A stretch of 64,000 nt of DNA from Saprospiraceae bacterium (lineage in GTDB: Bacteria > Bacteroidota > Bacteroidia > Chitinophagales > Saprospiraceae). Numbering within the stretch: the stretch's first letter is position 1; each line of letters begins with the position of its first letter. The notes beneath the pieces were generated by a model, which saw only the letters and a list, made by a program, of their open reading frames with translations, made no database searches and had not been told where the DNA came from. The stretch lies in NCBI GenBank assembly GCA_965223165.1, contig CBDCVQ010000009.1:119544-183543 (forward strand), read 5' to 3'. Below, in pieces: positions 33,779-64,000 of the stretch. The translations under genes were made by a program, and so were the position numbers.

Positions 33779-33852
33779 TTTAAAAAAAACAATATTGAGT
33801 ACTCGATGACCGGAGCGGATCAATTAAAACGCTCGGTACACCATTTATAACT

Positions 33853-37167: not shown

Positions 37168-37230
37168 CCCCGGTGCAGAGATGGCGGGCTGACGCCGCCC
37201 AAGATCACTTAAAAGAAAAAGCATACAGTC

Positions 37231-39663: not shown

Positions 39664-39799
39664 ACGTGGGTGCGACCCAAGGGCTGGCGCAGCACCATCC
39701 TGCATTGGGAGGGTAATCCCGAACGATTTTTTTAAGAAAAGTAGGTCGCCTAAACCAATCATTGGACTCATGGCTGCCACAACCGAAAGTACGATTACT

Positions 39800-42259: not shown

Positions 42260-42397
42260 CAATTTCAATGGCAATTTCAATTTCAATGGCAATGGCAATT
42301 TCGATGGCAATGGCAATTTCAATGGCAATGGCAATGACAATTTCGATGGCAATGGCAATTTCAATGGCAATGGCAATTTCAATGGCAATGACAGTGG
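42260..42397 (+). repeat. Hexanucleotide tandem array (CAATKK), 23 units, with an 18-bp higher-order unit CAATTT-CAATGG-CAATGG
   Basis: Parsed unit by unit from the sequence. Variants are CAATTT, CAATGG, CGATGG, CAATGA and CAGTGG. It starts 18 nt after the paralog-4 stop codon. Confidence 0.95.
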
Positions 42398-44261: not shown

Positions 44262-45484
44262 TCAAACAGCTACCCTGGGCAGCGACGGATTAAGGTGCAT
44301 AAATAGATCATAGATCGAGACTCCGGTCTTGGTCGAAATCCAATTCGGATCGATCTCCGGCGAACCAGATCCTATCAGGGTAGCAATATCACCCACCCGC
44401 ACCGTTTGCTCTTGGCCGATCTCCAAGATGGTGTGACTGGCGGATACTGCGCCAATGACGGGATAAGTCTTGGATCCGATCGAGACAACCGCACCTTTGG
44501 TCGCTGCTCTGGGATAACCATCTGCGTGTCCCACAGGAAGGGTCGCCACCCACGTAGGCTCCGTTGCCACGTATCTCCTTCCGTAACTCACGCTATCTCC
44601 GGCCCCCAATCGCGCCACTCTCACTACCCTTGCTTTTAGTCGCACCGTGCAAGCCAGATCGGCTGATGGTCTCTGCCTGGCTGGGTCGTTTGGATAGCCG
44701 CCGTATAGCGCCATGCCGGGACGCACCATATCGAGATGCGCGGCAGACAAGTCGAAGACCGCACTGGAGGAGGCTGCATGCAGCACCCCAATGGCTACAC
44801 CCTGCGACCTTGCTTGCTCGGCCACCGATAAAAACCGATCCAACTGCTCGACATCAAAATCCGGATCTCCGTAAAGCCCATAAACATGCCCTCGATCGCG
44901 ACCATTCCTGCGTCGTGTAGTTTGGTGAGCCAGGGCAGGGCTTTGCGATAAGGCATACCCATGCGACTCATGCCCGTATCTAAGTACACTTGGGCTGAAA
45001 TGGGCGCTGCCTTTCGACCACTCATGGCTGCAATCAGATCGAAGTCGTCCTCAGAATAGAGACAAGGTTGAATATTTCGATGCACCAATTCGGCAGCGAG
45101 GGTTTGAGGCACCCGAGCCATCAGATGGATCGGTTTAGTAATCCCCGCATCTCGCAAAGCAAAAGCCGAAGCGGCCTTGACCACCGCAAAGCCAGCAATC
45201 TCAGGCCGAGACTCCAGATAGCTGCCTGCCTGGATCAGGCCTAATCCATAGGCATTGTTTTTTACCACCGCAAGAATGGGCCTGCCCCCTCCCAGGCGAT
45301 GCACCTCCTCTACATTGTGCCATAATGCTGCCCGATCCACCTCTATCCAGGGATCGAAACGGTCTTTATCGAGCTGTCCTTCCCCTACCATTGAGCCCTG
45401 ATGTCCAAGAAGAGAGCTGCCGAGGCCGGTCGCGGCCACAGATAGAGCCGCCTGTTTCATAAATGTACGTCGAGGTTGTGCCAT
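44262..45484 (-). pseudogene. alr: Alanine/amino-acid racemase (PLP, fold type III) with a Tat signal, interrupted by a 1-nt frameshift near 44867
   Basis: The N-terminal ORF runs from ATG 45484 (MAQPRRTFMKQAAL..., VVKNNAYGLG PLP-Lys motif ... GMFMGFTE). The C-terminal ORF ends at 44262 (FLSVAEQ...HAASSSAVFD...DMVRPGMALYGG...VSYGRRY). Inserting one base at GGATCTCC (44863-44870) restores ...GFTEDPDFDVEQLDRFLSVAEQ. Confidence 0.75.
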
Positions 45485-45669
45485 GGTATTGATGCAAATC
45501 AAGAAATGCGAGAAATGAGATGCCCTTACCAAATATATCAATTCCAACCTCAGGTAGAGGCCAGCCTTGGCTCCTGCTCGTACGCTAATTTGCTGGCTTA
45601 GACCACAACGAATCTTCCCCTTCCTGCAACCTTGACTCAGTTTTGTCCGTCCTTGATATATACCTGATT

Positions 45670-45713: not shown

Positions 45714-46046
45714 ATGAGTAGACATCACCTGGGAGAATTTGAAGAGATCGTCATGCTGACTGTAGCCATCCTGCACGGGGAGGCATATGGTATTGCCATC
45801 TTAAATGAAATCGAGGACCGTCTCCATCGCAAGGTGAGTATCGGCTCGCTTCAGACCGTGTTGCGGCGGCTCGAAGACAAGGGCTATCTCAGTTCTGAGC
45901 TTGGTGAGGCCACAGCGGTACGGGGAGGAAAACGAAAGCGATTCTTTCAGGTGACAAATTACGGAAAGAAAGTGCTGACACAGACGAAGGAGCAACGAAT
46001 GTCTCTTTGGAAAGCTATTCCTAAAATCGCCTGGGATCGCTCATGA
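45714..46046 (+). CDS. PadR-family transcriptional regulator (short, 110 aa)
   Basis: LGEFEEIVMLTVAILHGEAYGIAILNEI...GSLQTVLRRLEDKGYLSSELGEATAVRGGKRKRFFQVT. Its stop overlaps the next start (ATGA). Confidence 0.9.
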   Translation: MSRHHLGEFEEIVMLTVAILHGEAYGIAILNEIEDRLHRKVSIGSLQTVLRRLEDKGYLSSELGEATAVRGGKRKRFFQVTNYGKKVLTQTKEQRMSLWKAIPKIAWDRS

Positions 46047-48655
46047 GTACCAACCCCCGATATCCCGATGCCCCCAAATGGGCTGTGCGTTTCTTCCGCT
46101 GGTTTTGCCGGCCAGACATTGTCGAGGACATCGAGGGGGATCTGAGAGAAAGGTACCATGCAGTGCAGTTGCAGCAAGGACCTGCGAAAGCCACGCGGTT
46201 CCTATGGTGGCAGGTACTCTTATTATTTCGTCCGGGCATTATTCGTCCCATGGGACAACACCTTCAATTAATAAACACGATGATGATTTCTCACAATTTG
46301 CGACTAAGTTGGCGGCTACTCAACAAGAATAAAGGCTTTGCCCTGATTAATATCGGTGGCCTGGCGACCGGTATGGCCATCGCCATGTTTATTGCCATCT
46401 GGATCACCGACGAATTAAAGTATGACCGCTTTCACGAGAACGGCGATCTCCTCTTCAAGGTGATGCGGCATGTCTATTCCGGCAATGAGATCCATACCAG
46501 TGACCGGGTAACCTACAACATTGCCGCCCGGCTCAAGGAGGATTATGCCGAGGTAGCAAATGTGGCAGTGCTCTCTCGTCCGATCGAGCTCATTGCGATC
46601 CAGGATGACTTTTCGTTGAGGATGCAAGGGTATTTTGGTACGCCATCATTTGCCGACATGTTCTCCTGGCGCATCATAGCCGGCGATGGCAAGTCTCTGC
46701 TGGATGATCCAAGCTCCATGGTCATTTCTGCCTCACTCGCAAAGAAGTATTTTGGGGCTGATCGCTATGCCTCCCAGGATATCGTGGGGCGTACCCTCAG
46801 ACATAATCTCGACGGCCTTGCCGAGTTTACCATCGCAGGTATATTTGAAGATCTGCCCGCCCAAAGCAGTCTCCAATTTGATTATCTGCTTCCGTTGGAG
46901 ATCTATAAAAGCCGCAACCGCTGGCTTACCGACTGGAACAATAGCGGTCCGCACATATTCGCCCAGATGCACGATGGTGCCGACTGGCAACACGTGAGCG
47001 AAGACATGGTAAACATGCAAAACGAACATATCGAAGGATTTCGCAGTGACCTCTTTCTACATCCTTATCCAGATCAGCATCTATATGGGTCCTTTAAGAG
47101 TGGCGTTTTGCAGGGCGGCCGCATCCAATACGTCAGGATCTTTGGCCTGATCGGACTAATGATCATTCTCATCGCCTGCATCAATTTTATGAATTTGGCC
47201 ACGGCTCGGTCGATATGGCGTATTAAAGAAATTGGGGTACGTAAAACCGTGGGGGCCGGAAAGCGCTCATTAATTGTCCAGTTTATGAGCGAATCGGTCT
47301 TGCTTATTGCCATTTCCTATCTGCTTGCTCTTTCACTGGTCTTACTAGGACTGCCCTTCTTTAACGGCCTGACCGGCAAAATGCTCAGTTTGGCAGACAT
47401 TAATCCCCCGACCTTTGTCCTCTTTGGACTCATAGGTATCACGACGGCAGTGTTGGCCGCGACGTATCCATCCTTCTATTTGTCCTCCCTTTCGGTGATT
47501 CGCATGTTCAATAAATCAGCAGGCTCTGCGGGAAACAAGAACTCATTTAGGAGAGGTCTCGTCGTATTTCAGTTTGCCATGTCCTTTTTGTTGATTGTAG
47601 GCACATTGGTTGTCTACCGGCAAATGTCCTTTATCCATCAGAAAAATCTAGGCCTGGATCGAGCACATGTCGTGACCATGCCTCGAGAGGCTGCCTGGCG
47701 GGATCAGTACGAGGCCATGAAATCACAGCTTCAACAGCATCCATCGATTACTCAGGTCTCTTGTGCCAGTGAGACGCCGCTGGACATTGGATCAAATACC
47801 CACTCCGTACAGTGGAGCGGCAAGGATCCCCAAGCAGAAATCTCCATTAAAATTCTATCGGTGGGTTATGACTTTGTCGAAACACTTAGGATGCAATTGG
47901 CCGCCGGTCGATCCTTTGATCCGGCCCTTGACAATGAATCGGATCGGTATTTAATCAACGAAGAGGCAGCCGCCGTGATGGGGTTTGACGATCCGCTGGG
48001 ACAGCATCTAAAATTCTGGGGCGGGGAGGGACCCATTGTGGGCGTGGTCCGGGATTTTCACATGAGCTCATTCTATAGAGATATTGAACCCACCATTTTG
48101 CGCCTAAGACCTCGCAATGCCTCGGACATCTTTATTCGTGTAGCGGGCGAGCAAACCGAGGAGGCTTTGGCTGCCTTGGAGCAAGTACATACTCGATTTA
48201 ATCCCAATATCCCTTTCAGCTATGAATTCTTAGACGATCAATTTGCAAAGAAGTATGAGAGTGAGCAAGCCATCGGTCTGCTGTCATTTTGGTTTACGAC
48301 TTTTGCTCTCCTCATTGCGGCGATGGGTCTGCTTGGCCTGGCCATCTTCGCCGGGCATCAGAGACTCAAGGAAGTCAGTGTCCGTAAAATCCTGGGTGCC
48401 ACCACGTGGCAGGTCACGTACCTTTTGTCACGAGATTTTTTGCTCCTGATTTTTGTCGCCCTGTTGATCGCCTCCCCCATTGCCTATGTTTTTACGGAAA
48501 ACTGGCTGGGCAATTTCTCCTATCGGATTAATCTGGGAATGGATTTATTCGTACTCGCAGGTCTGGCAACGATGCTCATTTCTCTGACGATCGTAGGCCT
48601 ATATGCCCTTCGGATTGCATTCGTCAACCCTATTCAAGCACTGCGATCAGAATGA
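46043..48655 (+). CDS. Duplicated FtsX/MacB-type ABC permease with an N-terminal prefix domain (paralog 5)
   Basis: 870 aa. The prefix is PKWAVRFFRWFCRPDIVEDIEGDLRERY...LLFRPGIIR. Motifs are INFMNLATARSIWRIKEIGVRKTVGA and HQRLKEVSVRKILGAT; the C-terminus is NPIQALRSE. ATGA overlaps occur at both ends. Confidence 0.9.
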   Translation: MSTNPRYPDAPKWAVRFFRWFCRPDIVEDIEGDLRERYHAVQLQQGPAKATRFLWWQVLLLFRPGIIRPMGQHLQLINTMMISHNLRLSWRLLNKNKGFALINIGGLATGMAIAMFIAIWITDELKYDRFHENGDLLFKVMRHVYSGNEIHTSDRVTYNIAARLKEDYAEVANVAVLSRPIELIAIQDDFSLRMQGYFGTPSFADMFSWRIIAGDGKSLLDDPSSMVISASLAKKYFGADRYASQDIVGRTLRHNLDGLAEFTIAGIFEDLPAQSSLQFDYLLPLEIYKSRNRWLTDWNNSGPHIFAQMHDGADWQHVSEDMVNMQNEHIEGFRSDLFLHPYPDQHLYGSFKSGVLQGGRIQYVRIFGLIGLMIILIACINFMNLATARSIWRIKEIGVRKTVGAGKRSLIVQFMSESVLLIAISYLLALSLVLLGLPFFNGLTGKMLSLADINPPTFVLFGLIGITTAVLAATYPSFYLSSLSVIRMFNKSAGSAGNKNSFRRGLVVFQFAMSFLLIVGTLVVYRQMSFIHQKNLGLDRAHVVTMPREAAWRDQYEAMKSQLQQHPSITQVSCASETPLDIGSNTHSVQWSGKDPQAEISIKILSVGYDFVETLRMQLAAGRSFDPALDNESDRYLINEEAAAVMGFDDPLGQHLKFWGGEGPIVGVVRDFHMSSFYRDIEPTILRLRPRNASDIFIRVAGEQTEEALAALEQVHTRFNPNIPFSYEFLDDQFAKKYESEQAIGLLSFWFTTFALLIAAMGLLGLAIFAGHQRLKEVSVRKILGATTWQVTYLLSRDFLLLIFVALLIASPIAYVFTENWLGNFSYRINLGMDLFVLAGLATMLISLTIVGLYALRIAFVNPIQALRSE

Positions 48656-51279
48656 GTGAGAGAAATCCAACAGGCGAATTCAAAGATCCTCCCCAGGGGC
48701 CACTCCGCTTCTTTCGCTGGTTTTGTCGAAGGGACATTCAGGAAGATATCGAGGGTGATCTACGTGAGCGTTACCAGGAGAAAGTGGCGCAGCGAGGTGC
48801 GACCCGTGCGGGACGTTTCCTTTGGTACCAGGTAATTTTACTTTTTCGTCCGGGCATCATCAGGCGCTTTGGTGAAGGAAGCAACTTTGTGATGATCGCT
48901 CAAAATTTCAAAGTCAGCTGGCGTGCCTTGAAGCGAAGAAAGATCCATGCACTAATCAACATAGGTGGCCTTGCACTAGGCCTCACTGCCTGCCTCATGA
49001 TTGCCCTTTGGCTGTATGACGAACTCTCCTTTGACTCGCTTGTCCCAGATCGAGACCGCATCGCTTATGTCATGCGTCACCAGCAGTTTGGCGATGAGGT
49101 CAGAACCTGGTACGGACAACCTATGCAGCTGGCACCGGTACTACGCGAACAATACGGGCAAGATTTCGAACGGGTAGTGACCGCTACCTCGTCGACGACG
49201 CGGCTGCTCAGCTGGGAAAATCAGAAGCTGAGACGGTCCGGACGATTTGTCGAACCCGGCTTTCTGGATCTGTTTGCCATCCGTCTGCTGCGCGGCTCGG
49301 CTGATGAGCTGCATGATCCTTCGGCCATCTACTTATCTAGCCTGACGGCGACGGAGATGTTTGGCGACCAAGATCCCATAGGCCAGACACTCCGGATCGA
49401 CAATCGCATGGACGTCCAAGTGGCGGGCCTATTCGCGGATCTGCCGGACAACAGCACCTTTGCCGGGCTGGACTTTGTCGCGTCATTCGAGCTGCTAAAG
49501 CAAGCGGACAACCTCGAGCAGCGGGTGGGATGGGGCAATAACTGGTTTAATCTATTTGTTTTGCTTCCCAGAGGCAGTGATATTGATATGGCTGCCGCCA
49601 AAATCAAGTATCTCACGCGTGACTATGTCCCGCCTGAAATCCGTGACCGCAATCAGCCGGAGTTATTCTTGCACCCAATGAAAAAGTGGCACCTCCATAG
49701 TCGCTTCGCAAATGGTGTCAACACAGGAGGTCGGATCGAATATGTCTGGATTCTCGGGATTATCGGACTATTTATCCTCGCGATTGCCTGTATCAACTTT
49801 GTCAACCTGAGCACAGCTCGGTCAAGCCAGCGAGCCCTTGAGGTCGGCATCCGGAAGACCATTGGGTCCAATCGATCCCAGCTCATCACTCAGTTTATGA
49901 GTGAGTCCTACATCGTCGTAGCATCGGCCTATGTCATTGCCCTAGGACTTGCCAGATCGAGCCTCCCCCTCTTTAATCTGGTGACGGATAAGCAAATGTC
50001 GTTGCCGTGGGCAGATGGCTATTTTTGGTTGGCATCTCTCGGTGGTGTCTGCCTGATCGCTAGTCTGGCAGGTATTTATCCCTCCTTCTATTTATCTTCC
50101 TTTCGGCCCATCAGCGCATTGCGAGGAGCTAGGCAGCATACTGGCCAGACCTTCACGTTGCGTCGCGTTCTCGTCACCTTTCAGTTTGTGATTTCGGTCG
50201 CACTCATCATTGGCACCTTGGTCATCCTTCGTCAAATACAATATGCCAAGAACCGTCCCATCGGCTATAAGCAGGACCACATTATCTCTGTGCCCATCCG
50301 CACCTCTGAGGTGGTAGATCACTACGAAACGATCCGTCAGGAACTGCTAGCCACGGGAGCCGTCACCCATGTGACTGCATCCGACGTGGTGGTTGCCGCG
50401 ACGAATACCACCAATAGTGGATTTGATTGGCAGGGCAAAGATCCGCAGATGCGGGATGAGTTTTATACGTTGCGAGCCACGCACGGCTTTGGCGAAATGA
50501 TCGAATGGGAGATCAAGGAGGGTCGAGATTTTTCTCGCGAATACGGGACCGATTCGCTTGCATTTATTCTCAATGAGACCGCCGTTGAATACATGGGGTT
50601 TGATGACCCCATTGGCCAGCAGGTGCGTTGGGGCAGAAACGGCATATTTCATGTCGTGGGAGTAGTCAAGGACATGATCACCCGATCTCCCTACCACCAG
50701 ATTAAACCGATGATCTACACATTGCACTACGGCCGATTTATCCGCTATCTAAATCTAAAACTGCACCCCGAAAACAGTGCTGCAGATGCCCTCGACAAGA
50801 TCAAATCGGTCATGGCACAGCATGATCCCGCCAATCCTTTCGAATATCAATTTATGGATGAACGGTATGCAAAAAGATTTGGCAATGAAGAGAAGGTGGC
50901 CAAGCTGGCCGGATACTTTGCTATCCTGTCGATCCTCATCTCCTGTGTGGGACTGCTGGGCATTGCCATCCTCGTGACCGAGCAGCGACAAAAGGAAATC
51001 AGTGTGCGAAAAGTACTGGGCGCCTCCGTCCAAAATCTCTGGGTCTTGCTATCTAAAGAATTTGTCCTGCTCGTGCTGTTGGCTACCTGCTTAGCGGTCT
51101 TGCCCACGCACTATTTGATGGGCAAGTGGTTGGATCAATTTGGGCTCCGCATTGGCCTCCCCTGGTGGATATTTGCATTGTCTGGCATGGCTGCCCTTTT
51201 CCTAACCGCGCTGACCGTAAGCATTCAAACGATCAGAGCCGCTTGGGTCAATCCGTCCCAAGCCCTGCGGAGTGAGTAG
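48652..51279 (+). CDS. Duplicated FtsX/MacB-type ABC permease with an N-terminal prefix domain (paralog 6)
   Basis: 875 aa. The prefix is PQGPLRFFRWFCRRDIQEDIEGDLRERY...LLFRPGIIR. Motifs are INFVNLSTARSSQRALEVGIRKTIGS and QRQKEISVRKVLGAS; the C-terminus is NPSQALRSE. Confidence 0.9.
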   Translation: MSERNPTGEFKDPPQGPLRFFRWFCRRDIQEDIEGDLRERYQEKVAQRGATRAGRFLWYQVILLFRPGIIRRFGEGSNFVMIAQNFKVSWRALKRRKIHALINIGGLALGLTACLMIALWLYDELSFDSLVPDRDRIAYVMRHQQFGDEVRTWYGQPMQLAPVLREQYGQDFERVVTATSSTTRLLSWENQKLRRSGRFVEPGFLDLFAIRLLRGSADELHDPSAIYLSSLTATEMFGDQDPIGQTLRIDNRMDVQVAGLFADLPDNSTFAGLDFVASFELLKQADNLEQRVGWGNNWFNLFVLLPRGSDIDMAAAKIKYLTRDYVPPEIRDRNQPELFLHPMKKWHLHSRFANGVNTGGRIEYVWILGIIGLFILAIACINFVNLSTARSSQRALEVGIRKTIGSNRSQLITQFMSESYIVVASAYVIALGLARSSLPLFNLVTDKQMSLPWADGYFWLASLGGVCLIASLAGIYPSFYLSSFRPISALRGARQHTGQTFTLRRVLVTFQFVISVALIIGTLVILRQIQYAKNRPIGYKQDHIISVPIRTSEVVDHYETIRQELLATGAVTHVTASDVVVAATNTTNSGFDWQGKDPQMRDEFYTLRATHGFGEMIEWEIKEGRDFSREYGTDSLAFILNETAVEYMGFDDPIGQQVRWGRNGIFHVVGVVKDMITRSPYHQIKPMIYTLHYGRFIRYLNLKLHPENSAADALDKIKSVMAQHDPANPFEYQFMDERYAKRFGNEEKVAKLAGYFAILSILISCVGLLGIAILVTEQRQKEISVRKVLGASVQNLWVLLSKEFVLLVLLATCLAVLPTHYLMGKWLDQFGLRIGLPWWIFALSGMAALFLTALTVSIQTIRAAWVNPSQALRSE

Positions 51280-51446
51280 TCGCCCTAGGACAGGTTAAGC
51301 AGTGCTCGTCTGCCTCCGAATGCGGTCGATCGACGTTGCGATCCCTGACTGTATCGAAGGCCAGGGACCCTCCACTCGAAGATCGAAAGCTGTCGCTCGT
51401 AGCGTTCCTGGGCAGATCAGTCGAAATGTGTCTGCTTCGTTAGCAG

Positions 51447-51462
51447 TGTCCGATATCGTACA
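51447..51462. promoter_or_regulatory. Near-palindrome TGTCCGATATCGTACA (15/16 match to 31615-31630), second candidate enhancer site
   Basis: Read directly. A CGTACA half-site follows at 51478-51483. Its centre lies about 95 nt upstream of the TGGCA at 51549-51553, the same spacing as at the first site. Confidence 0.55.
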
Positions 51463-51538
51463 GTTTCTGACCGCTGGCGTACAATCTTGGGGGCGCTTGA
51501 ACCGGTCTTTCATTCTCTATCTATCTGGTTATCAATCA

Positions 51539-51564
51539 CATAGAGTTTTGGCATATATTTCTAT
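51539..51564 (+). promoter_or_regulatory. Second copy of the conserved promoter box CATAGAGTTTTGGCATATATTTCTAT
   Basis: 25 of 26 nt are identical to 31705-31730, while the roughly 80 nt between palindrome and box are not conserved. It is 104 nt upstream of the paralog-7 ATG at 51668. Confidence 0.5.
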
Positions 51565-51667
51565 AGCTTATATAAAGGAGCGCCCTCGGCTTGCATGGAA
51601 TCAGTTGACAATCAAGGAGTAAGCAATGCCAGGGGAGCTCAGATCAAACTAGACGAATTAGCACCTT

Positions 51668-54115
51668 ATGTTTCGAAATAATCTGAAGATCGCATGGCGA
51701 AACGTCCTTCGCCACAAACTGTACAGCTTGCTCAACGTGCTTGGGCTGGGATTTGGCATCGCCTGCTTTCTCTTCATAGCACTATATGTCATCGATGAGT
51801 TAACCTTCGACCGATTTCACCAAAAGTCGGATCGGATATATCGACTCGTCCAACATCGTGAATCGCCCGAGGAGGGTGTCCAAAAATTTGGAGCCGTTTC
51901 TTACAATGCCGGCGTAGCTGCGCGCGAGGAGATCGCCGGCGTGGAAAGCAGTACCCATCTCTTCATGTTTGGTCGGGCCGTCCTGCGCAATCCGGCCAAC
52001 CAAAATGCCTTCTATCAGCCATTCTTAACGGCTGAGCCCACTTTTTTTGATCTCTTTGATTTTGCGTTCATCTCAGGAGATCCATCTACGGCTCTGGCAG
52101 AACCAAACACGGTCGTGTTGGAGCAAGACCTGGCTCAAAGACTCTTTGGCGACCTTGACCCCATGGGACAAATACTACGTAGCGATCGGGGCATGGATCT
52201 GGAGGTTACCGGTGTGCTGAAAGACCTACCTTCCAATTCGCATATTCAATTTGAATCCTTGATCTCACAGGCTACCCTCGAAGCGGTACCCTTTTGGGAG
52301 AGGAATATGCCCGGCGATTGGTCCAGCCAGAACTTTGGCACCTACCTGGCACTGCACCCCGACCAGGAGCCTGCAACGATCGGTGCGCAATTGACGGATT
52401 TTGCCCGGGCCCGAGCAAGGGAAGAACGGCCTTTTACGGGCCATTTGGAATTGCAACCCCTCACCGACATTCACTTTGGATCCGAGGGATACCAGCGCGA
52501 ATTAAACGAGCAGAAGAGCACCTATACTTATCTCTACATATTTAGTTTGATCGGACTTTTTATTGTACTCATTGCTTGTGTCAACTATGTAAACCTGGCC
52601 ACCGCACGTTCGTCCAAGTACAGCCGAGAGGTCGGCGTAAGAAAGGTGGTAGGTGCCGGTCGCCGACAGTTGTTCGCTCGCTTCCTTTCTGAAAGTGTAG
52701 TGTTGACGCTGTTGGCTTTCTTCCTGGCCGTGGCCTTGACCCAGGCAGGCTTACCTCTGTTTAATGAATTTACCGGCAAAGCACTCACTCTCAATTTATT
52801 TGCCTCTGGCTGGACCATCCCCACCATGGCTGCGATCATTTTCCTGGTCAGCCTATTGGCCGGTAGTTATCCCTCGATCTATCTCTCTCGATTTCGGCCA
52901 TCCGTGGTACTCAAGGGCGTACAAAACACGGAAAAGGGTAAGCATGGTCTGTTGAGGCGAGGACTGGTCGTACTTCAGTTTTCGATCTCCATTCTGATGA
53001 TCATCGGCACATTGGTCGCGTGGCGTCAGGTAAGTTTCGTGATGCATCGTGATCTGGGTTTTGCCCAAGACCAGCGTATCGTAGTAGATATAAATAGTGG
53101 TCGGGTGCGGCAGGGATTTGAAACCATCAAGCATGGCTATGAGCAATTGCCGGACGTAAGATCGGTTTCTGTGAGCAGCCGCGTCCCCGGCGAATGGAAG
53201 ACTCTACTGCAGGCGGAGATCCGACCGGAAGGCAAGTTTGCCGAAACGGGGCCTACCCCTTGGTTTATTGGTGCGGACGAGGATTTTCTCGAGACCTTTG
53301 AAATCGATCTGATCAGCGGGCGAAATTTTGATCCGCAGCGTCCCATGGATTCCGCATCAATCATTCTCAATCAGCAAGCGGCAGCGGTCTTAGGCATCGA
53401 TGCTGCCGCGGGACAGTCCGTGCAAGTGGTCAGCCGAATTGCCAATGGTTCAGAGCGGATGTTTGACGAACCATTTCGGGCGCAAGTCATTGGCATCATG
53501 GAGGACTTCAATTTTCAGTCGTTATACGAGCCCGTTACTCCACTGGTGCTGGCATACCGCAGTAATCCGGTGCAAGCCATCGATTATTTTACCGCCCATG
53601 TATCCGGTCAAAACACCGAAAGGACGATCCAGCAGATGACCGAGATCCTGCACTCCGTCGATCCTGAACAATTATTCGAATATCACTTTTTGGACGAGCA
53701 GATCGATCAATTTTACGAGGCAGACGTCCAGCGCTCACAGCTCTTTTCTACCGCAGCCCTCTGTGCCATCTTTATTGCGTGCCTGGGGCTCTTTGGTCTC
53801 GCCGCATTTATGGCCGAGCAACGCACCAAGGAAATTGGCATACGGAAAGTGCTGGGATCGAGTACCGTTGGCATCGTCCAACTGCTGTCGAAGGATTTTA
53901 TCAAACTGGTACTGATTGCGCTGTTGGTGGCCTCTCCCCTTGCCTATCACTTCATGGAGCAATGGCTGCAGGGGTTTGCCTACCGCATTAGCATCGCCTG
54001 GTGGATGTTTGCGGTAGCCGGTGCCTTTGCCGCTACCATCGCTTTGGTGACGGTAGGATATCATAGTATTAGAGCCGCTACGTCCAACCCGGCAGAAGCA
54101 TTGCGGAGTGAATAG
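51668..54115 (+). CDS. Duplicated FtsX/MacB-type ABC permease (paralog 7)
   Basis: 815 aa with N-terminus MFRNNLKIAWRNV. Motifs are VNYVNLATARSSKYSREVGVRKVVGA and QRTKEIGIRKVLGSS; the C-terminus is NPAEALRSE. Confidence 0.9.
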   Translation: MFRNNLKIAWRNVLRHKLYSLLNVLGLGFGIACFLFIALYVIDELTFDRFHQKSDRIYRLVQHRESPEEGVQKFGAVSYNAGVAAREEIAGVESSTHLFMFGRAVLRNPANQNAFYQPFLTAEPTFFDLFDFAFISGDPSTALAEPNTVVLEQDLAQRLFGDLDPMGQILRSDRGMDLEVTGVLKDLPSNSHIQFESLISQATLEAVPFWERNMPGDWSSQNFGTYLALHPDQEPATIGAQLTDFARARAREERPFTGHLELQPLTDIHFGSEGYQRELNEQKSTYTYLYIFSLIGLFIVLIACVNYVNLATARSSKYSREVGVRKVVGAGRRQLFARFLSESVVLTLLAFFLAVALTQAGLPLFNEFTGKALTLNLFASGWTIPTMAAIIFLVSLLAGSYPSIYLSRFRPSVVLKGVQNTEKGKHGLLRRGLVVLQFSISILMIIGTLVAWRQVSFVMHRDLGFAQDQRIVVDINSGRVRQGFETIKHGYEQLPDVRSVSVSSRVPGEWKTLLQAEIRPEGKFAETGPTPWFIGADEDFLETFEIDLISGRNFDPQRPMDSASIILNQQAAAVLGIDAAAGQSVQVVSRIANGSERMFDEPFRAQVIGIMEDFNFQSLYEPVTPLVLAYRSNPVQAIDYFTAHVSGQNTERTIQQMTEILHSVDPEQLFEYHFLDEQIDQFYEADVQRSQLFSTAALCAIFIACLGLFGLAAFMAEQRTKEIGIRKVLGSSTVGIVQLLSKDFIKLVLIALLVASPLAYHFMEQWLQGFAYRISIAWWMFAVAGAFAATIALVTVGYHSIRAATSNPAEALRSE

Positions 54116-54307
54116 CAATTTCAATGGCAATAGCAATTTCAATGGCAATTTCAATGGCAATGGCAATTTCAATTTCAATGGCAATGGCAATGGCAATTTC
54201 AATGGCAATAGCAATTTCAATGGCAATGGCAATTTCAATGGCAATAGCAATTTCAATGGCAATAGCAATTTCAATGGCAATTTCAATGGCAATGGCAATG
54301 GCAATTA
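54116..54307 (+). repeat. Hexanucleotide tandem array (CAATTT/CAATGG/CAATAG), 32 units, starting at the base after the stop codon
   Basis: Parsed unit by unit. The stop TAG is at 54113-54115 and the first CAATTT is at 54116. A recurring 18-bp super-unit is CAATTT-CAATGG-CAAT(G/A)G. Confidence 0.95.
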
Positions 54308-54356
54308 GCAGTGAACAATTAGCAATTAGCAATGAACAATTAACAATGAGCAATGA
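54308..54356 (+). repeat. Heptanucleotide tandem array (RCAATKA), 7 units
   Basis: GCAGTGA ACAATTA GCAATTA GCAATGA ACAATTA ACAATGA GCAATGA, read directly and contiguous with the hexamer array. Confidence 0.85.
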
Positions 54357-54430
54357 GCAGTTTATTAGGATCGTAGAGCACGGACGCTTTGCGGGAGTGA
54401 TCTGCGAGCCGCAACCAGGGATACAACTAG

Positions 54431-54528
54431 CAGTGAACAATTAGGCAATGGCATTTCAATATCAATAGCAATGTCAATGACAATGTCATACAGTGCACAA
54501 ATCAACAATTCAACATCTACACAATTCC
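54431..54528 (+). repeat. Degenerate CAAT-core repeat tract
   Basis: CAGTGAACAATTAGGCAATGGCATTTCAATATCAATAGCAATGTCAATGACAATGTCA...CAACAATTCAACATCTACACAATTCC. It mixes decayed 6-8-bp CAAT units between the heptamer and octamer arrays. Confidence 0.7.
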
Positions 54529-54728
54529 ACCATAAAACCATAAAACCATAAAACCATAAAACCATAAGACCATAAGACCATAAGACCATAAGACCATAAG
54601 ACCATAAAACCATAAAACCATAAAACCATAAGACCATAAGACCATAAGACCATAAAACCATAAAACCATAAAACCATAAAACCATAAGACCATAAAACCA
54701 TAAAACCATAAAACCATAAGACCATAAA
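54529..54728 (+). repeat. Octanucleotide tandem array (ACCATAAR), 25 units, ending 2 nt before the ATG of paralog 8
   Basis: Parsed unit by unit. With A = ACCATAAA and G = ACCATAAG the order is AAAA GGGGG AAA GGG AAAA G AAA G A. It is exactly 200 bp, followed by AT then ATG (54731). Confidence 0.95.
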
Positions 54729-54730
54729 AT

Positions 54731-57103
54731 ATGTTTAGAAATCACATGAGGGTGGCCTGGAGGAATTTGATTAAATATCCCTCCTATTCATTGGTGAATC
54801 TTTGCGGATTGGCGCTCGGTATCTCCGCCTCCTTCGTGCTGCTGCTCTATGCGATTCAGGAGTTGAGCTATGATCGGCATTTTGCTGATGGCGATCGCAT
54901 CTACCGCATCGCTGCGGACTTCTATAATATGGGTGGCTTCGCCAAGAGCCAGGAGGGGCTGTTGGATCATCTGCCTTCCGAGTGTCCCAGCATTGCGCAG
55001 TATACGCGATTTGACAAGGGAACCGCTTTGGAGCTGACAGTGGATGATCAGCCTTATGTGGAACGAGATTTCCTTTATGTCGACTCTCTTTTCTTTCAGA
55101 TGTTTCCTTACACATTCGTAGAAGGAGAGGCCGGCGAGGTGATGACCACGCCTCATGAGATCATTCTCTCGGAAAGGCTTGCCCGCAAATATTTTGGAAA
55201 AGAAAGCGCACTCGGCAAGTACGTGGAAATCGGAGAAGATGGACTATCGTATCGCGTATCAGGGGTGGTACAGTCTACGACCAAGAAGACTCATCTAAAG
55301 TCTGATCTCTGGCTCCCCGTATACAATAGACATGAGAAAAATCCACATTGGACCAATGTCACCTACTATAATTACGTAAAACTACATCCATCTGCGGGGG
55401 CGCATGATCTTGAGATTGCGCTGGAGGAGTTGCGGCGAAAGAAAGTGCATCCTTCGATCGCACCTAATTCTAGCTTTGAGGAGTGGTCACAGAGTGATTT
55501 TGCCGTCAAATTCTTCGTACAGCCGCTCCATGACATTTATTTGCACTCCGACTTTGCCATGATGGAGACGATACCCGGCGGCAATCCTACGCAAATTTAC
55601 ATCCTCGGGATCATAGGTATATTCATCATTCTGATCGCCGGATCCAATTACATAAACCTCACCACGGCTCGATCGTCCCTTCGCGGAAAGGAAGTGGGTA
55701 TCCGCAAGACCTTGGGCGCGGAGCGTCGGATGCTCGTCAAACAGATGCTGACCGAGTCCATTCTGTTTAGCCTGTTGGCCGCGGTGATCGCAGCTGGCTT
55801 GGTCGAAATCCTGCTCTTGGCCTTTAAGAAGATCAGTGGGACAGCCATTCTATCGACGCTGCTCAGCGGCTGGCAATACATTGGTCTGCTATTGTTATAC
55901 TCCTTGCTATCAGGAGTATTCGCGGGCATTTATCCTGCGTTTTATCTGACGGCCTTCCGACCTGCACGCACGATCAAGGGCAACTTTACGGCCAAGGGCA
56001 ACAAGCGTCTTCGCGGCGGACTAGTCAGCCTACAGTTTTGCATCGCGATCGCCTTGATTGTATCCAGCCTAATCGTCTACCAGCAATTAAGATATCTCCA
56101 GACCAAGGATACGGGATTTGAAATGGAGGGAGTGGTAGTAGTGGATAATGTGGTCGACCTGGGTGGGCAGGAGGAAGCGTTCAGACAAAAATTAAGGACG
56201 CAGCCGCAGTTGCAGTTATCTAGCTTTGCGCAGCGATTACCCGCTGGCAACAGCATGTGGATGAGTTCTTACCGTACGCCGGAGATGAGTGAGACGGTAA
56301 CGATCCAGACCTTTCCGGTAGACGCCGACTACATACCTGTGATGGGTATGCGATTGGAGTCCGGTCGAAACTTTGACCGCCAACTGGCGACTGACTCCAA
56401 TTCGGTTATTATCAACGAGATGGCCGCCAAGAAGCTGGGGCTTACTCAGCCAATTGGTTCGGTACTCAACGGCAATCTGAAAGTGGTTGGCCTGGTACGC
56501 GATTTTAATTTCCAATCGTTTAGAGACCAGATCGCTCCTGCCGTCCTGACGATGGGAAAAGAGATGGGTAGACTACTCATTCTCAAACTCCATGGCACCG
56601 ACATCAGTAGCTTCTTAACCTATATGAATGAAACATGGCTCGAATTCTCCAGTGAGGAGCCGATACAGTATCATTTTCTCGAGGAAAATTTTGCAACCCT
56701 GGTCCAGAACGAACGAACCTTGAGTCAAGCCATCGGTTTTTTCACTCTTTTGGCATTGATCATCGCCTGTCTGGGCCTTTACGGCTTGGCATCCTTCACG
56801 GCAGAGCAGCGGACGCGAGAAATCGGCATTCGCAAGATCCTAGGTTCGTCGACGTTTGGTATCGTCAGTCTACTTTCACGGGACTTCCTCAAACTCGTCC
56901 TGATTGCTTTAGTGGTGGCAGCCCCGATTGCCTACGTCTTAATGAATCAATGGCTGCAGGGCTTTGCCTTTCGGATTCAGATATCGTGGTGGACCTTTGC
57001 CTTAGCGGGCCTAGCGGCTATGGCTATTGCATTTCTCACCGTAGGATATCAAAGTCTGAAAGTAGCCCTTACAAACCCTGCAGATTCGCTACGAAATGAA
57101 TGA
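54731..57103 (+). CDS. Duplicated FtsX/MacB-type ABC permease (paralog 8)
   Basis: 790 aa with N-terminus MFRNHMRVAWRNL. Motifs are SNYINLTTARSSLRGKEVGIRKTLGA and QRTREIGIRKILGSS; the C-terminus is NPADSLRNE. Confidence 0.9.
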   Translation: MFRNHMRVAWRNLIKYPSYSLVNLCGLALGISASFVLLLYAIQELSYDRHFADGDRIYRIAADFYNMGGFAKSQEGLLDHLPSECPSIAQYTRFDKGTALELTVDDQPYVERDFLYVDSLFFQMFPYTFVEGEAGEVMTTPHEIILSERLARKYFGKESALGKYVEIGEDGLSYRVSGVVQSTTKKTHLKSDLWLPVYNRHEKNPHWTNVTYYNYVKLHPSAGAHDLEIALEELRRKKVHPSIAPNSSFEEWSQSDFAVKFFVQPLHDIYLHSDFAMMETIPGGNPTQIYILGIIGIFIILIAGSNYINLTTARSSLRGKEVGIRKTLGAERRMLVKQMLTESILFSLLAAVIAAGLVEILLLAFKKISGTAILSTLLSGWQYIGLLLLYSLLSGVFAGIYPAFYLTAFRPARTIKGNFTAKGNKRLRGGLVSLQFCIAIALIVSSLIVYQQLRYLQTKDTGFEMEGVVVVDNVVDLGGQEEAFRQKLRTQPQLQLSSFAQRLPAGNSMWMSSYRTPEMSETVTIQTFPVDADYIPVMGMRLESGRNFDRQLATDSNSVIINEMAAKKLGLTQPIGSVLNGNLKVVGLVRDFNFQSFRDQIAPAVLTMGKEMGRLLILKLHGTDISSFLTYMNETWLEFSSEEPIQYHFLEENFATLVQNERTLSQAIGFFTLLALIIACLGLYGLASFTAEQRTREIGIRKILGSSTFGIVSLLSRDFLKLVLIALVVAAPIAYVLMNQWLQGFAFRIQISWWTFALAGLAAMAIAFLTVGYQSLKVALTNPADSLRNE

Positions 57104-57104
57104 G

Positions 57105-57158
57105 CAATGGCAATTTCAATGGCAATTTCAATGGCAATTTCAATGGCAATAGCAATAC
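57105..57158 (+). repeat. Hexanucleotide tandem array (CAATGG/CAATTT alternating), 9 units
   Basis: It starts 1 nt after stop TGA 57101-57103: CAATGG CAATTT CAATGG CAATTT CAATGG CAATTT CAATGG CAATAG CAATAC. Confidence 0.9.
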
Positions 57159-57169
57159 GGAGGTCAGTT

Positions 57170-57217
57170 CAACAATTCAACAATTCAACAATTCAACAAT
57201 TCAACAATTCAACAATT
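57170..57217 (+). repeat. Octanucleotide tandem array (CAACAATT), 6 perfect units, ending 14 nt before the ATG of paralog 9
   Basis: Parsed directly. It is followed by CGACACCATAACAC then ATG (57232). The ACCATAA just before the start echoes the 54529 array unit. Confidence 0.9.
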
Positions 57218-57231
57218 CGACACCATAACAC

Positions 57232-59610
57232 ATGATTAGAAATTACTTCATCACGGCATATCGCAATTTGTGGCGGAACAAAATGGTGTCCGCGATCAGT
57301 ATTGTAGGACTATCCATTGGTATAGCTGTCGGGCTGCTCAGTTATCTTCATATCAGATACGAACTTAGCTTCGATGGATTTCACGATAAGAAAGACCGGA
57401 TCTATCGCATCGTCACCGGAGACGTCAAGTCCGGTCAAGGATGGGTGGGGATTTCGGCACCCATTCCTCCGAAATTAAAATCGGATATTCCCGAGATTGA
57501 AGATTTTGTGCGTCTGACCAAGCTGGACCGAGATGGAAAGGTCGTTGTCCACCACGACAACCAAAGTTTTAACGAGGCCAATTTCTTTCTGGCGGATGCC
57601 TCCCTGTTCTCCATTTTTGATTTTTCCTTTATTCATGGACAGCCCGAGCAGGCCTTTCAGACGCCCGATGGCATAGTCGTCACGGCTAGCAGGGCCGAAA
57701 AGTTGTTTGGGGCAAGTTCACCCCTGGGTAAGATTGTCAAGATCAACGACAAACACGAGTTTCGTGTCAGCGGTGTCATCGAAGATCTGCGGCCTAACTC
57801 GCACCTCGCGTTGGACATGATTGTTTCCTTCGAAAACTTGGAAACGCTGCTTCCGTACGCCAGCTTGGACGGCAACTGGGGACAATACAATTACTATGGT
57901 TATGCCCTACTCCGTCAAGGAGCCGATCTTGCTGCTGCCGAGCGCAAGATAAAAGCGATCGAAGTGCCCCTCAAAGATTACACGCATACTTTTGAACAGC
58001 TGGGGCTGCAGCCCATGACCGACATTCACTTCGAACACAATCGGGGGAATATGAAGGCCTCTTATGATCGTAAATATTTGTACATCTATGGGGCCTCTGC
58101 CCTTGGGCTCATCTTTATTTCTTTGGTCAACTTCATAAATCTGAAAACGGCTGGGTCGTCCAAACGCATCCGCGAGGTAGGCGTGCGAAAAGCGATCGGG
58201 GCAAGACGCGGCGAACTCGTGGTGCAGTTTGTTGCCGAGGCCTTCCTTCTTTGCCTGGTCTCGTTGGCCCTCGGCCTATTTATCATGAACACCTGGCTCC
58301 TGCCCTACGTCAATAATTTACTGGGTGCCGACCTCCAGTTTCACCTATTTGACCTCCCCAATGCCAGTCTTGGCCTCCTTGGCCTTCTCGTGATCAGCCT
58401 ATTGTCAGGTACCTATATCGCCCAATTCATCACGTCCTTCTCACCTATGGAGGCCCTCAAGAGTCAAATTAAGACCAGCTCAGGTCGTGGATTGAAGTTT
58501 CGTGATGTGCTGCTCGGCGTCCAGTTTTTTGTGTCTCTGATTTTGATCATTGGCAGCTTGATCATCACCCGCCAAATGCAGCATGTCTCCGATATCAACT
58601 TAGGTCTCAATCCGGACCAGGTCCTCAACATCCCGCTCTATGTCGAAGTGGAGAAGGAGAAGCGATCGGTCCTGAAGAACGAGTTGAACTCCCTACCCAA
58701 CGTCACCCACGTGTCACTCAACAGCTTTAATCCCGGTCAGGCCAATTGGAATCAGACCACCTGGTGGGAGGGGCAGGAAGAGGACGAGAGCATGTTTATC
58801 ATCAGTGTAGATCCTGACTTCTTTGAAACGGCCGACGTCAAATTAATCGAAGGTAGCCTTGACCACATCAAAAGCAACCTCAGCGAACGCTATACCTATG
58901 TGCTCAACCAGTCGGCCAGGCAACACATCGGATGGGAGCAGGCGGTGGGACGGCAAGTATCACCCTTTGGCGATGACGCCCGAAAGCCGGTAACCGGAGT
59001 GATCGAAGACTTCACCTTTCAGTCCCTGCACGATCGTGTAAAGCCATGCCTCCTGGTCGTAGGTGATCTTACCCCGTCCCAACTGTATGTAAAGGTCAGG
59101 GCACAAGATGTGCAGGCGACCGTAGCAGCCGTCGAGGACAAGTTGGCAAGCATTCTGCCGGCACTGCCCTTTGAATATGCGTTTTTGGATGATCTCTTCG
59201 GTCAGTTATATTTGGCAGAAACGCAAGCTAGAGAAATCAGTCTATTCTATACCATCGTTTGCATACTGCTGGCCTTATTCGGCTTATATGGGATTCTGAC
59301 GTTTGAAGTCACCGAACGAGCCAAAGAAATCGCCATTCGCAAAGTGATTGGGGCCAAGGTATTGCACATCGTGGGTCTACTTTCTCGCGACTTCTTAAGG
59401 CTCATCCTGATCGCACTCGTCTTGGCCTCTCCCATCGCCTATTTTATGATGGATGGATGGCTCCAGGATTTTGCCTACCGCATTGACATTCCGTGGTGGA
59501 TTTTTGTCGTCGCAGGTCTGGTGGCGGCGCTCATTGCCCTGGCAATTGTCGCACTCCAAGGTGTGCGTGCAGCTCTACTAAATCCCGTACACGCATTAAG
59601 AGGAGAATAA
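57232..59610 (+). CDS. Duplicated FtsX/MacB-type ABC permease (paralog 9)
   Basis: 792 aa with N-terminus MIRNYFITAYRNL. Motifs are VNFINLKTAGSSKRIREVGVRKAIGA and ERAKEIAIRKVIGAK; the C-terminus is NPVHALRGE. Confidence 0.9.
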   Translation: MIRNYFITAYRNLWRNKMVSAISIVGLSIGIAVGLLSYLHIRYELSFDGFHDKKDRIYRIVTGDVKSGQGWVGISAPIPPKLKSDIPEIEDFVRLTKLDRDGKVVVHHDNQSFNEANFFLADASLFSIFDFSFIHGQPEQAFQTPDGIVVTASRAEKLFGASSPLGKIVKINDKHEFRVSGVIEDLRPNSHLALDMIVSFENLETLLPYASLDGNWGQYNYYGYALLRQGADLAAAERKIKAIEVPLKDYTHTFEQLGLQPMTDIHFEHNRGNMKASYDRKYLYIYGASALGLIFISLVNFINLKTAGSSKRIREVGVRKAIGARRGELVVQFVAEAFLLCLVSLALGLFIMNTWLLPYVNNLLGADLQFHLFDLPNASLGLLGLLVISLLSGTYIAQFITSFSPMEALKSQIKTSSGRGLKFRDVLLGVQFFVSLILIIGSLIITRQMQHVSDINLGLNPDQVLNIPLYVEVEKEKRSVLKNELNSLPNVTHVSLNSFNPGQANWNQTTWWEGQEEDESMFIISVDPDFFETADVKLIEGSLDHIKSNLSERYTYVLNQSARQHIGWEQAVGRQVSPFGDDARKPVTGVIEDFTFQSLHDRVKPCLLVVGDLTPSQLYVKVRAQDVQATVAAVEDKLASILPALPFEYAFLDDLFGQLYLAETQAREISLFYTIVCILLALFGLYGILTFEVTERAKEIAIRKVIGAKVLHIVGLLSRDFLRLILIALVLASPIAYFMMDGWLQDFAYRIDIPWWIFVVAGLVAALIALAIVALQGVRAALLNPVHALRGE

Positions 59611-59618
59611 CGTAAAAA

Positions 59619-61286
59619 ATGAATCGCGTCATGAGATTTCGAATCATACACATTTTGATCGCTGCCATCTGCCTATCGCCAGCACCCATTTACGGCCAGC
59701 AGACGCTGACGGCCACACAGTGGCAAGAAGATCTGATCTATCTTAAACACAAAGTGCAAAGCGAGTACCCCTTCCTCTTTAAAAAGGTTACGGTCAAAGA
59801 GTTTGGAGAGGAAGTGGAGACCCTACATCGCTCGATTCCCGACCTTGCCGATCACGAGATCATCGCTGGGTTTGCACGCATCATCTCTCTTTTCAAATAT
59901 GGTCATACGAGGATGGGATTGCAGGGTGGTCCGGTCACTTTCCGCACCCTCCCGATAAACATCTATCAATTTAAGGACGGGTTTTATGTAGAGGGTACCC
60001 ATCGGGATTACAAACAGGCCCTCGGAGCACGTATTGTGCAAATCGAGGGAATGCCCGTAGCGGAGGCACTGCAAAAAATACGGCCGGTCATTCCTGCAGA
60101 AAATGATCAATTTGTGAAGGCTTACGGCCTCAGCTACCTGAGAGTTCCTGAAATCTTGCATGCCCAAGGCGTAACCAAAGAGCTCAAATCAGAGATCCGC
60201 ATGACGCTGGATAAAGACGGCCAATCGATCGATGTTACATTCACGGCCGGTACGGAACGGGCACCTACCCAGTACGGTTTTGTAGAGGAGGAAGACCCAT
60301 GGCTTAGCATGCGAAACCAAGAGGCTACACCTCGCTACCTCAAGCACCTGGACAAGATCTATTATCACGAATACCTACCTGAGCACAAGGCCCTCTATGT
60401 ACGACATAGTCAGATCCAGGACGATCCTGCCAAAGACATACCCGCGTTTTATGAAGAGGTATTTGCCTTTGTTGAAGACAACGACGTAGAGCGGTTAATT
60501 CTTGACGTCCGACTCAACGGAGGTGGCAACAATTACAAGAACAAGCCCATCGTCACCGGGGTAATAAAAAGTGACAAGATCAATCAACCCGGTCAATTTA
60601 TCGTCATCATCGGCCGGCGCACTTTTTCGGCCTGCCAAAACCTAGTTAACGAACTCGACAATTATACGCAGGCCATCTTCATAGGCGAGCCTACCTCTGA
60701 AAACGTCAACTTCTACGGTGATAATCGGCGGGTGGAACTACCAAATAGTAAAATGTCTGCCTACCTGTCCTTTGCCTGGTGGCAAGACAAGCCCCCATGG
60801 GAAAATGCCCCCCACCTTGCGCCACATGTCGCCGTGGAGATGAGTGCCGCAGAGTATGCTGCTAATGCGGATCCGGTGCTGGATCTTGCCTTGACGTACT
60901 CGTCCAAGGACTTCGTGAGCGACCCCATGGCGCACCTCACCAAACTATTTGAGCAAGGTAAGATTGCAGAAGTCGAATCAGCGGCCAGACGTTTTGTCGC
61001 TGACCCCAGATATCAGTTTGTCGACTTCGAGGACAACTTCAATCGTGCTGGGTACAATTTAATGCAAGGCGATCGCCTCGAGGAGGCACTATTTGTTTTC
61101 CGCCTGAACAATGAATTGTTTCCCGAATCTGCTAACACCTGGGACAGTCTGGGTGAGGCGTTACACAAGGCAGATCGAAGGGACGAAAGTATAAGCCACT
61201 ATAAGAAGGCCATCGAACTGGATCCGGACGGTCCGGTGGGCGAAAACGCTCGAAAAATGCTGGCCGAGATCGACACACAAGACTGA
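59619..61286 (+). CDS. Secreted S41-peptidase-like protein with C-terminal TPR repeats
   Basis: Signal peptide (ILIAAICLSPAPIYGQQ). LILDVRLNGGGN and GRRTFSACQNL resemble the S41 D-x-R-x-N-x-GG and Ser-nucleophile regions. The C-terminal TPR-like part reads NTWDSLGEALHKADRRDESISHYKKAIELDP. It starts 8 nt after the paralog-9 stop. Confidence 0.55.
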   Translation: MNRVMRFRIIHILIAAICLSPAPIYGQQTLTATQWQEDLIYLKHKVQSEYPFLFKKVTVKEFGEEVETLHRSIPDLADHEIIAGFARIISLFKYGHTRMGLQGGPVTFRTLPINIYQFKDGFYVEGTHRDYKQALGARIVQIEGMPVAEALQKIRPVIPAENDQFVKAYGLSYLRVPEILHAQGVTKELKSEIRMTLDKDGQSIDVTFTAGTERAPTQYGFVEEEDPWLSMRNQEATPRYLKHLDKIYYHEYLPEHKALYVRHSQIQDDPAKDIPAFYEEVFAFVEDNDVERLILDVRLNGGGNNYKNKPIVTGVIKSDKINQPGQFIVIIGRRTFSACQNLVNELDNYTQAIFIGEPTSENVNFYGDNRRVELPNSKMSAYLSFAWWQDKPPWENAPHLAPHVAVEMSAAEYAANADPVLDLALTYSSKDFVSDPMAHLTKLFEQGKIAEVESAARRFVADPRYQFVDFEDNFNRAGYNLMQGDRLEEALFVFRLNNELFPESANTWDSLGEALHKADRRDESISHYKKAIELDPDGPVGENARKMLAEIDTQD

Positions 61287-61299
61287 ATCACAGAGCAAG

Positions 61300-63735: not shown

Positions 63736-63736
63736 A

Positions 63737-64000
63737 CGATGGCAATGGCAATGGCAATGGCAATGACAATTTCAATGGCAATGAACAATGAACAGTGAAC
63801 AATGAACAGTGAACAATGAACAGTGAACAGTGAACAGTGGCAATGACAATGACAATGGCAATGACAATATCAATGGCAATGAACAATGAACAGTGAACAA
63901 TGAACAGTGAACAATGAACAATGAACAGTGAACAATGAACAGTGAACAATGAACAGTGAACAATGAACAGTGAACAATGAACAGTGAACAATGAACAGTG
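63737..64000 (+). repeat. Composite tandem-repeat tract of alternating hexamer (CAATGR/CAATTT) and heptamer (ACAATGA/ACAGTGA) blocks, running off the window end
   Basis: Parsed directly as hexamers 63737-63784 (8 units), heptamers 63785-63840 (8), hexamers 63841-63882 (7), and heptamers 63883-64000 (16+, mostly the 14-mer ACAATGAACAGTGA). It starts 1 nt after stop TGA 63733-63735. Confidence 0.95.

Follow-up and report, generated by a model that had tools for sequence, protein, structure and literature searches.

Tandem enhancers acting on sigma-54 promoters are a textbook arrangement. Among the closest described cases are the NtrC- and NifA-type systems, in which glnAp2 is served by tandem NtrC sites and nif promoters by a NifA UAS of the form TGT-N10-ACA; the E. 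coli glnAp2 promoter reads TGGCACAGATTTCGCT. A computational survey has tied promoters of this type to ABC transporters in the Bacteroidota, with sigma-54 promoters enriched before FtsX-like permease genes (COG0577) in Bacteroidia (PMC12316311, 2025). Permeases of the ADOP type (acidobacterial duplicated orphan permease, TIGR03434) form a cluster of ten paralogs with associated transporters in Psychroflexus torquis (PMC3914696). The transporter genes considered below also resemble MacAB-type tripartite efflux pumps; their nearest named NCBIfam set, the darobactin exporter DarBCD, combines an adaptor, a stand-alone ATPase and an FtsX-type permease.

We analysed a 64-kb stretch of a Saprospiraceae genome (the window), in which two forward-strand transporter operons are each preceded by the same combination of palindromes and a promoter-like box (sites 1 and 2). 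Operon 1 (31746-42241) encodes a membrane-fusion adaptor (31746-32996), two ABC ATPases (ABC_tran; 33089-33778 and 33853-34557) and three duplicated MacB_PCD/FtsX permeases of ~800 residues (34717-37167, 37231-39663 and 39770-42241), all on the + strand. Operon 2 (51668-63735, also +) consists of four MacB_PCD+FtsX permease genes (51668-54115, 54731-57103, 57232-59610 and 61300-63735) and a gene for an S41/TPR protein (59619-61286). As the initial annotation had proposed, operon 2 is without an ATPase (NBD) gene of its own, the ABC_tran domain not being found in 51668-63735, and among the larger ORFs of the window this domain is confined to the two ATPase genes of operon 1. Behind the first gene of operon 2, short tandem repeats take up a gap of 615 nt (54116-54730), and the site 2 transcript may either end there or run on as a single unit to 63735.

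Like ADOP proteins, the permeases of the window contain MacB_PCD+FtsX in duplicate (2 x) within ~800 residues, belong to many-paralog arrays in which most members have no adjacent ATPase gene, and are in some cases adjoined by PadR genes (45714-46046; 28304-28630). Unlike in the ADOP case, part of the array here is preceded by an adaptor gene and two ATPase genes, and a regulator can be identified for it. The permeases score 306.6 and 284.4 bits against the TIGR03434 cut-off of 622.3, and by this model are to be regarded as ADOP-like rather than as members. The resemblance to MacAB and DarBCD extends to the adaptor (nearest NCBIfam models DarC/MacA) and the ATPases (DarD/LolD/MacB NBD), all of which score below the curated cut-offs; here, however, the permease is internally duplicated, seven such genes accompany two ATPase genes, and the window showed no gene for an outer-membrane channel.

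The interval between the two operons holds a SnoaL-like gene, an ORF of 402 residues without assignment and an alanine racemase gene in two pieces, as well as a PadR gene accompanied by two permease genes of 870 residues. The racemase is represented by overlapping reverse-strand ORFs (44262-44843 and 44795-45547) that divide its N-terminal domain between them, and is probably a frameshifted pseudogene or the product of a sequencing error. PadR-plus-permease units occur twice in the window (45714-51279, + strand; 25692-28630, - strand), with permeases of ~870 residues that are ~55-60 residues longer than the others. The pairing of PadR with an orphan duplicated permease is a known one; both units are without UAS and box, so that this neighbourhood seems to contain transporter genes under more than one kind of control.

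Tandem repeats fill several of the gaps within and behind the operons (42260-42390, 54111-54359, 54529-54729, 57099-57222 and 63731-64000). CAATGG/CAATTT hexamers begin right at the stop codons, an array of 25 copies of ACCATAAA ends 1 nt before the ATG at 54731, and seven copies of TTCAACAA precede the ATG at 57232. In an orthologous operon of a related genome (L038), like gaps are occupied by markedly different repeats (9-mers in 21-24 copies, and heptamers; 6157-6245, 7380-7591 and 8367-8556), and a more distant locus (L034) also has a repeat gap (9886-9929). Such repeats might serve as unstructured spacers for Shine-Dalgarno-independent initiation, or might be length-variable elements.

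Divergently from site 1 runs the gene of an NtrC-type enhancer-binding response regulator (30215-31594, - strand) with the Pfam domains Response_reg, Sigma54_activat (E 1.8e-67), AAA_lid_14 and HTH_8. It thus has the receiver, AAA+ and Fis-type HTH modules of the NtrC family, as well as an adjacent histidine kinase gene. In this composition the regulator resembles the NtrC/NifA-type activators, although NifA itself has a GAF domain in place of the receiver, and although the sigma-54 contact loop reads GSFTGA here; in the 20 closest relatives this loop is either GSFTGA or GAFTGA. Against the NCBIfam equivalogs the regulator reached no cut-off, the best model being that of the PEP-CTERM-box regulator (413 bits vs 503). 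The neighbouring kinase gene (28802-30136, - strand), which occupies the same position in four related loci (L031, L036, L037 and L038), encodes a HATPase_c domain and is likely to specify the partner of the regulator. Its translated product carries a pair of membrane segments near the N-terminus, with a connecting loop of ~4 residues, and lacks a recognisable sensor domain. In this it resembles intramembrane-sensing kinases, such as BceS of the BceS/BceAB type, which sense their signal via a partner FtsX-type transporter.

The distal palindrome of site 1 (TGTACGATATCGTACA, 31615-31630; the palindromes are given without strand) is perfect, and that of site 2 (TGTCCGATATCGTACA, 51447-51462) departs from it at one of 16 positions. 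With up to three mismatches allowed, the window holds no copies beyond these two (shuffle mean 0.33), and none of 100 shuffles reached four matches. At both sites we found a second, weaker palindrome, absent from the initial annotation, exactly 21 nt downstream of the first (TGCACGGTTCCGCACA, 31636-31651, and TGACCGCTGGCGTACA, 51468-51483). The promoter boxes (31705-31730 and 51539-51564, both +; the latter reads CATAGAGTTTTGGCATATATTTCTAT) likewise differ at a single position out of 26, a degree of likeness for which shuffled sequence gave 0 matches, and share an identical 17-nt core, TTGGCATATATTTCTAT. The element TGGCAT lies at 31715-31720 in site 1 (-24 GG at 31716-31717) and at 51549-51554 in site 2 (GG at 51550-51551), placing the UAS pair at -100/-79 and -102/-81 relative to TGG. 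The single-mismatch agreement of the first palindrome and of the box had both been recognised from the start, and they stand: neither would be expected by chance, and both elements are unique in the window to these two places. The distances first given from palindrome centre to TGGCA (~94 and ~95 nt) were close to the 92.5 and 94.5 nt that we obtain, but the sites differ by 2 nt rather than 1. The intervening spacer, earlier called unrelated, is roughly so. On formal alignment, the 53-55 nt between UAS pair and box are weakly similar, with 47 of 1000 shuffles scoring equally, and the similarity sits mainly in the ~20 nt adjoining the box.

With the NtrC/NifA-type systems the two sites share tandem inverted repeats on one helix face and a TGGCA -24 element ~100 bp further downstream; the NifA consensus TGT-N10-ACA is matched literally by the palindrome, and the glnAp2 sequence quoted above is matched by the box at 12 of 16 positions. 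The -24 element is canonical; the departure from those systems is in the -12 region. Where the canonical element TTGCW would place GC, 10 nt after the GG, the window carries TA (TGGCATATATTTCTAT), and at site 1 the region is a T-rich TTTCTAT without GC. The targets here, moreover, are transporter genes and not genes of nitrogen metabolism. A scan of the window for canonical TGGCAY-N5-TTGC gave one exact match (17911-17925), inside an ORF (17659-18558), and many of the one-mismatch matches fell in hexamer repeats, while a scan for housekeeping sigma-70-type promoters gave no excess over chance. An ORF that overlaps the site 2 spacer (51302-51622) has no family match and was treated as spurious.

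If canonical sigma-54 geometry applies, transcription would start at about 31741 in site 1 and about 51575 in site 2, with predicted leaders of ~5 nt and ~93 nt. The 104-nt leader originally proposed for site 2 corresponds to the distance from the end of the box to the ATG at 51668, which is 103 nt, and becomes ~93 nt when counted from the predicted start. We rejected a riboswitch or other structured leader at site 2, since this leader gave no Rfam match and no unusual fold (z-score -1.3).

We then compared ten sites in six genomes, the two of the window and eight in five related genomes; four of these were represented by loci around relatives of the regulator (L031, L036, L037 and L038) and one by a locus from an exact-match scan (L003). 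Close relatives of the regulator are 57-77% identical to it, the named ones being mostly annotated as Saprospiraceae, Lewinellaceae or Bacteroidota. The divergent arrangement of regulator and adaptor genes, together with the same signature, recurs in all five related genomes. The distal palindrome conforms to TGTNCG-N4-CGNACA at every one of the ten sites and is always the strong one; the proximal palindrome, TG[C/A]NCG-N4-CGNAC[A/G] in the five related genomes, is weaker and lies exactly 21 nt downstream, again without exception. The central 4 nt vary freely while the half-sites are kept, the pattern expected of a dimeric HTH protein. The start of the distal UAS lies at -90/-91 from the T of TGG in three genomes (L031, L036 and L037) and at -100 to -102 in the others (window, L003 and L038). 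These two distance classes are thus ~10-11 nt, one helical turn, apart, as would be expected if the activator needs a set DNA face relative to the polymerase. Across the 442 kb searched, the tandem pattern occurs at these regulatory sites only, and in none of 200 random windows of the same composition. The palindromes are therefore dyad, tandem, phased and conserved at orthologous loci, as bacterial enhancers are, and we regard them as putative binding sites. That selection has acted on the elements and their spacing, and that the spacer was not recently duplicated, had been argued from the window alone; the comparison bears this out, all ten sites keeping the layout while the spacers diverge.

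The boxes are conserved in a similarly uneven manner. TGG is invariant in all ten and TGGCAY is present in nine, whereas GC at GG+10 is found in none; T11 and T12 are invariant there, with TC, TTC or the like coming next. At the six regulator-adjacent sites, 28-32 nt separate the T of TGG from the ATG of the adaptor gene (conserved start MDRKIE...). This fixed geometry argues for a transcription start where a sigma-54 promoter predicts it, and with the canonical start distance the main transcripts of the six genomes would have leaders of 1-5 nt and be near-leaderless, a further difference from the NtrC/NifA-type systems. At all main sites examined the distal UAS begins 20 nt after the start codon of the regulator gene, so that its occupation would probably also control the regulator's own promoter, making the gene autoregulated.

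The signature is not limited to the adaptor promoter. In three other genomes an internal copy is found before ATPase-less permease genes, downstream of the ATPase genes. In L031 it separates the second ATPase gene from the first permease gene (UAS pair, with TGGCAC at 6496 on the - strand); in L032/L036 it follows a small inserted reverse gene and consists of TGTACGCTAACGAACA, then TGCCCGCTTTCGCACA at +21, then TTTGGCATGACCTTTCGAT; in L037 it follows two inserted non-permease genes and consists of a UAS pair and then TTGGAACGATTTTTCAAC. The leaders of the internal sites measure 33-93 nt. As these promoters precede different permease ortholog groups, they must have been gained or moved repeatedly. 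In L032, orthologs of the permease genes at 34717 (70% identity) and 51668 (62%) stand in one array behind the ATPase genes, which supports the view that operon 2 of the window belongs functionally with operon 1; the gene order suggests that, as ~9 kb of unrelated genes came to separate the two units, operon 2 either gained a control region of this kind for itself or retained one. The link between 51668 orthologs and the signature is not universal: in the more distant L033, L034 and L035 these orthologs lie in two-permease clusters with neither box nor UAS upstream. A degenerate site before 34717, the position of the internal promoter in L031 and L032, was looked for and not found. Directly after the internal promoter of L032 there is a 67-residue ORF (4740-4943) with a permease-like N-terminus (MIFYYVKLALSNLTRNRF...), apparently a truncated permease fragment left at the insertion point.

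From the sequence elements, protein domains and cross-genome conservation described above, we infer that each site is an enhancer with a sigma-54-type promoter and that both are read by the activator encoded at 30215-31594, a reading to which we assign a probability of roughly 75%. The adjacent divergent gene, a sigma-54 activator of the NtrC type with a Sigma54_activat domain, is the obvious common reader for two sites so alike. In the proposed sequence of events the kinase would phosphorylate the regulator, whose dimers would then bind, through the Fis-type HTH, the strong (TGTNCG-N4-CGTACA) and the weaker site, which lie 21 bp from each other and share one helix face. The bound dimers would assemble into an AAA+ ring, and this ring would loop ~90-100 bp of DNA to contact sigma-54 polymerase at the TGGCAT box and open the promoter. 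Site 1 would drive the adaptor gene, the two ATPase genes and three permease genes from an almost leaderless mRNA, and site 2 the ATPase-less permease genes behind a leader of ~93 nt. The same signal would switch on both units and so allow the permeases of site 2 to be produced alongside the two ATPases, the only ones that the locus encodes. Co-regulation of operons 1 and 2 is, at the level of sequence, well supported, and common use of the two ATPases by the operon 2 permeases is plausible and fits the gene order of L032.

The alternative that survives best, which we nevertheless consider unlikely, accepts that the regulator binds the palindrome pairs but holds that the TGGCAT...TTTC box is no sigma-54 promoter; it would be a promoter of a different type or the binding site of another protein, the regulator then being a repressor or the partner of some other sigma factor. 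Some relatives of the enhancer-binding proteins do act in one of these ways. The consistent lack of the -12 GC favours such a reading, as does the conservation of the box over at least 19 nt relative to L003, beyond what the classical -24/-12 contacts need. Yet TGG is fixed in position at all ten sites, and the distance and helical phasing between UAS and box are those typical of activation by looping. Moreover, the GAFTGA/GSFTGA loop that contacts sigma-54, a feature usually lost in sigma-54-independent relatives, is retained here. The box does hold the -33 motif TTTG, but by eye there is no -7 motif of the Bacteroidota housekeeping type (TAnnTTTG) ~20 nt downstream. A non-canonical -12 region is in itself no obstacle, for validated E. 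coli sigma-54 promoters include examples that deviate there (PMC12316311). For flavobacterial sigma-54 promoters, located by 5'-end sequencing, the reported -24/-12 elements are typical (PMC9723704), and the deviation seen here is therefore peculiar to this promoter family rather than general in the phylum. No rpoN gene lies within the window. The gene is listed for Saprospiria in the supplement of the computational survey, with two copies in Haliscomenobacter hydrossis and several Chitinophagia (PMC12316311), and the unusual -12 sequences of these promoters might be connected with such an additional sigma-54 paralog.

A scan of metagenomes for UAS, gap and box returned two loci, L029 and L030, which were set aside as probably belonging to other regulons. 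Both have a palindrome, TGTTCG-N4-CGTACA, ~80-90 nt upstream of TTGGCAT boxes (L029, 4243-4356; L030, 5160-5285). In L029 the -12 region is TTTCGCA, with the canonical GC, and precedes what appears by eye to be a gene for a TolC-like outer-membrane channel; in L030 it is TTTCGTA, with GT in place of GC. Related regulators may thus use canonical promoters elsewhere.

Less probable still is that site 2 is a non-functional leftover, made by duplication or gene conversion of parts of the site 1 spacer, with the genes from 51668 onward expressed by read-through from the PadR-permease unit (45714-51279) or from some other promoter. The near-identity of the two boxes over 26 nt, continued by likeness for ~18 nt further upstream, would fit such an origin. 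The main and internal boxes of L031 or L036 differ much more from each other, so that the pair in the window may share recent ancestry, and no terminator-like site was found in 51279-51668. Against this, site 2 retains all three elements, namely the distal UAS, the proximal UAS precisely 21 nt from it, and the box, with the correct spacing across 53-55 nt that are barely similar, and the same geometry recurs with different sequences in three genomes, before three permease ortholog groups. The source genome is covered by the 64-kb window alone, but that palindrome and box form a dispersed repeat or mobile element at many unrelated loci is scarcely credible: the window has two copies only, similarity ends at the elements with no extended repeat, in related genomes the signature is confined to the immediate vicinity of the regulator and the interior of its transporter array, and neither the window, nor the 442 kb, nor the 28 exact 19-mer matches in species-representative genomes (the source genome not being among these) showed it in unrelated contexts, the single match with a UAS being that of the orthologous L003 and the other 27 chance or coding-sequence matches in unrelated taxa.

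Beyond the reading of two sigma-54-type promoters under one activator, a bolder extension can be framed, which we hold to be doubtful. These sites would represent a distinct class of activator-dependent promoters in this group of Bacteroidota, with a canonical TGGCAY at -24, a T-tract/C instead of the -12 TGC, recognition by a second RpoN paralog or by altered -12 contacts, and almost leaderless mRNAs. Such promoters would have been repeatedly installed in orphan-permease arrays, so that one pair of sensor-less kinase and activator coordinates many interchangeable permeases with a single ATPase pair.

The overall arrangement is solid but fairly ordinary regulation with a modestly unusual promoter. 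The survey cited at the outset, like our analysis, connects FtsX/MacB-type ABC permease genes of this phylum with sigma-54 promoters. It differs in using class-level matrices built on TGGCAC-N5-7-TTGCT and in stating that strongly deviating promoters are missed, and its accessible part names neither a cognate activator nor UAS nor internal second promoters (PMC12316311). What is new here is that an activator and a motif for it are identified, that the enhancers are tandem and phased with the helix, that internal copies recur before ATPase-less permeases, that the -12 region departs from the canon at every site, and that the predicted main transcript is near-leaderless. The orphan duplicated MacB/FtsX permeases form a large family about which little is understood, and for them this provides a concrete, testable regulon of one regulator, one motif and two promoters; if the ATPase-less permeases are indeed made together with the only two nearby ATPases, the locus would be a good place to examine whether several permeases share one ATPase pair. 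The non-canonical -12 region and the near-leaderless transcript would broaden what counts as a sigma-54 promoter in Bacteroidota, and promoters that deviate in this manner would probably escape predictors based on the consensus.
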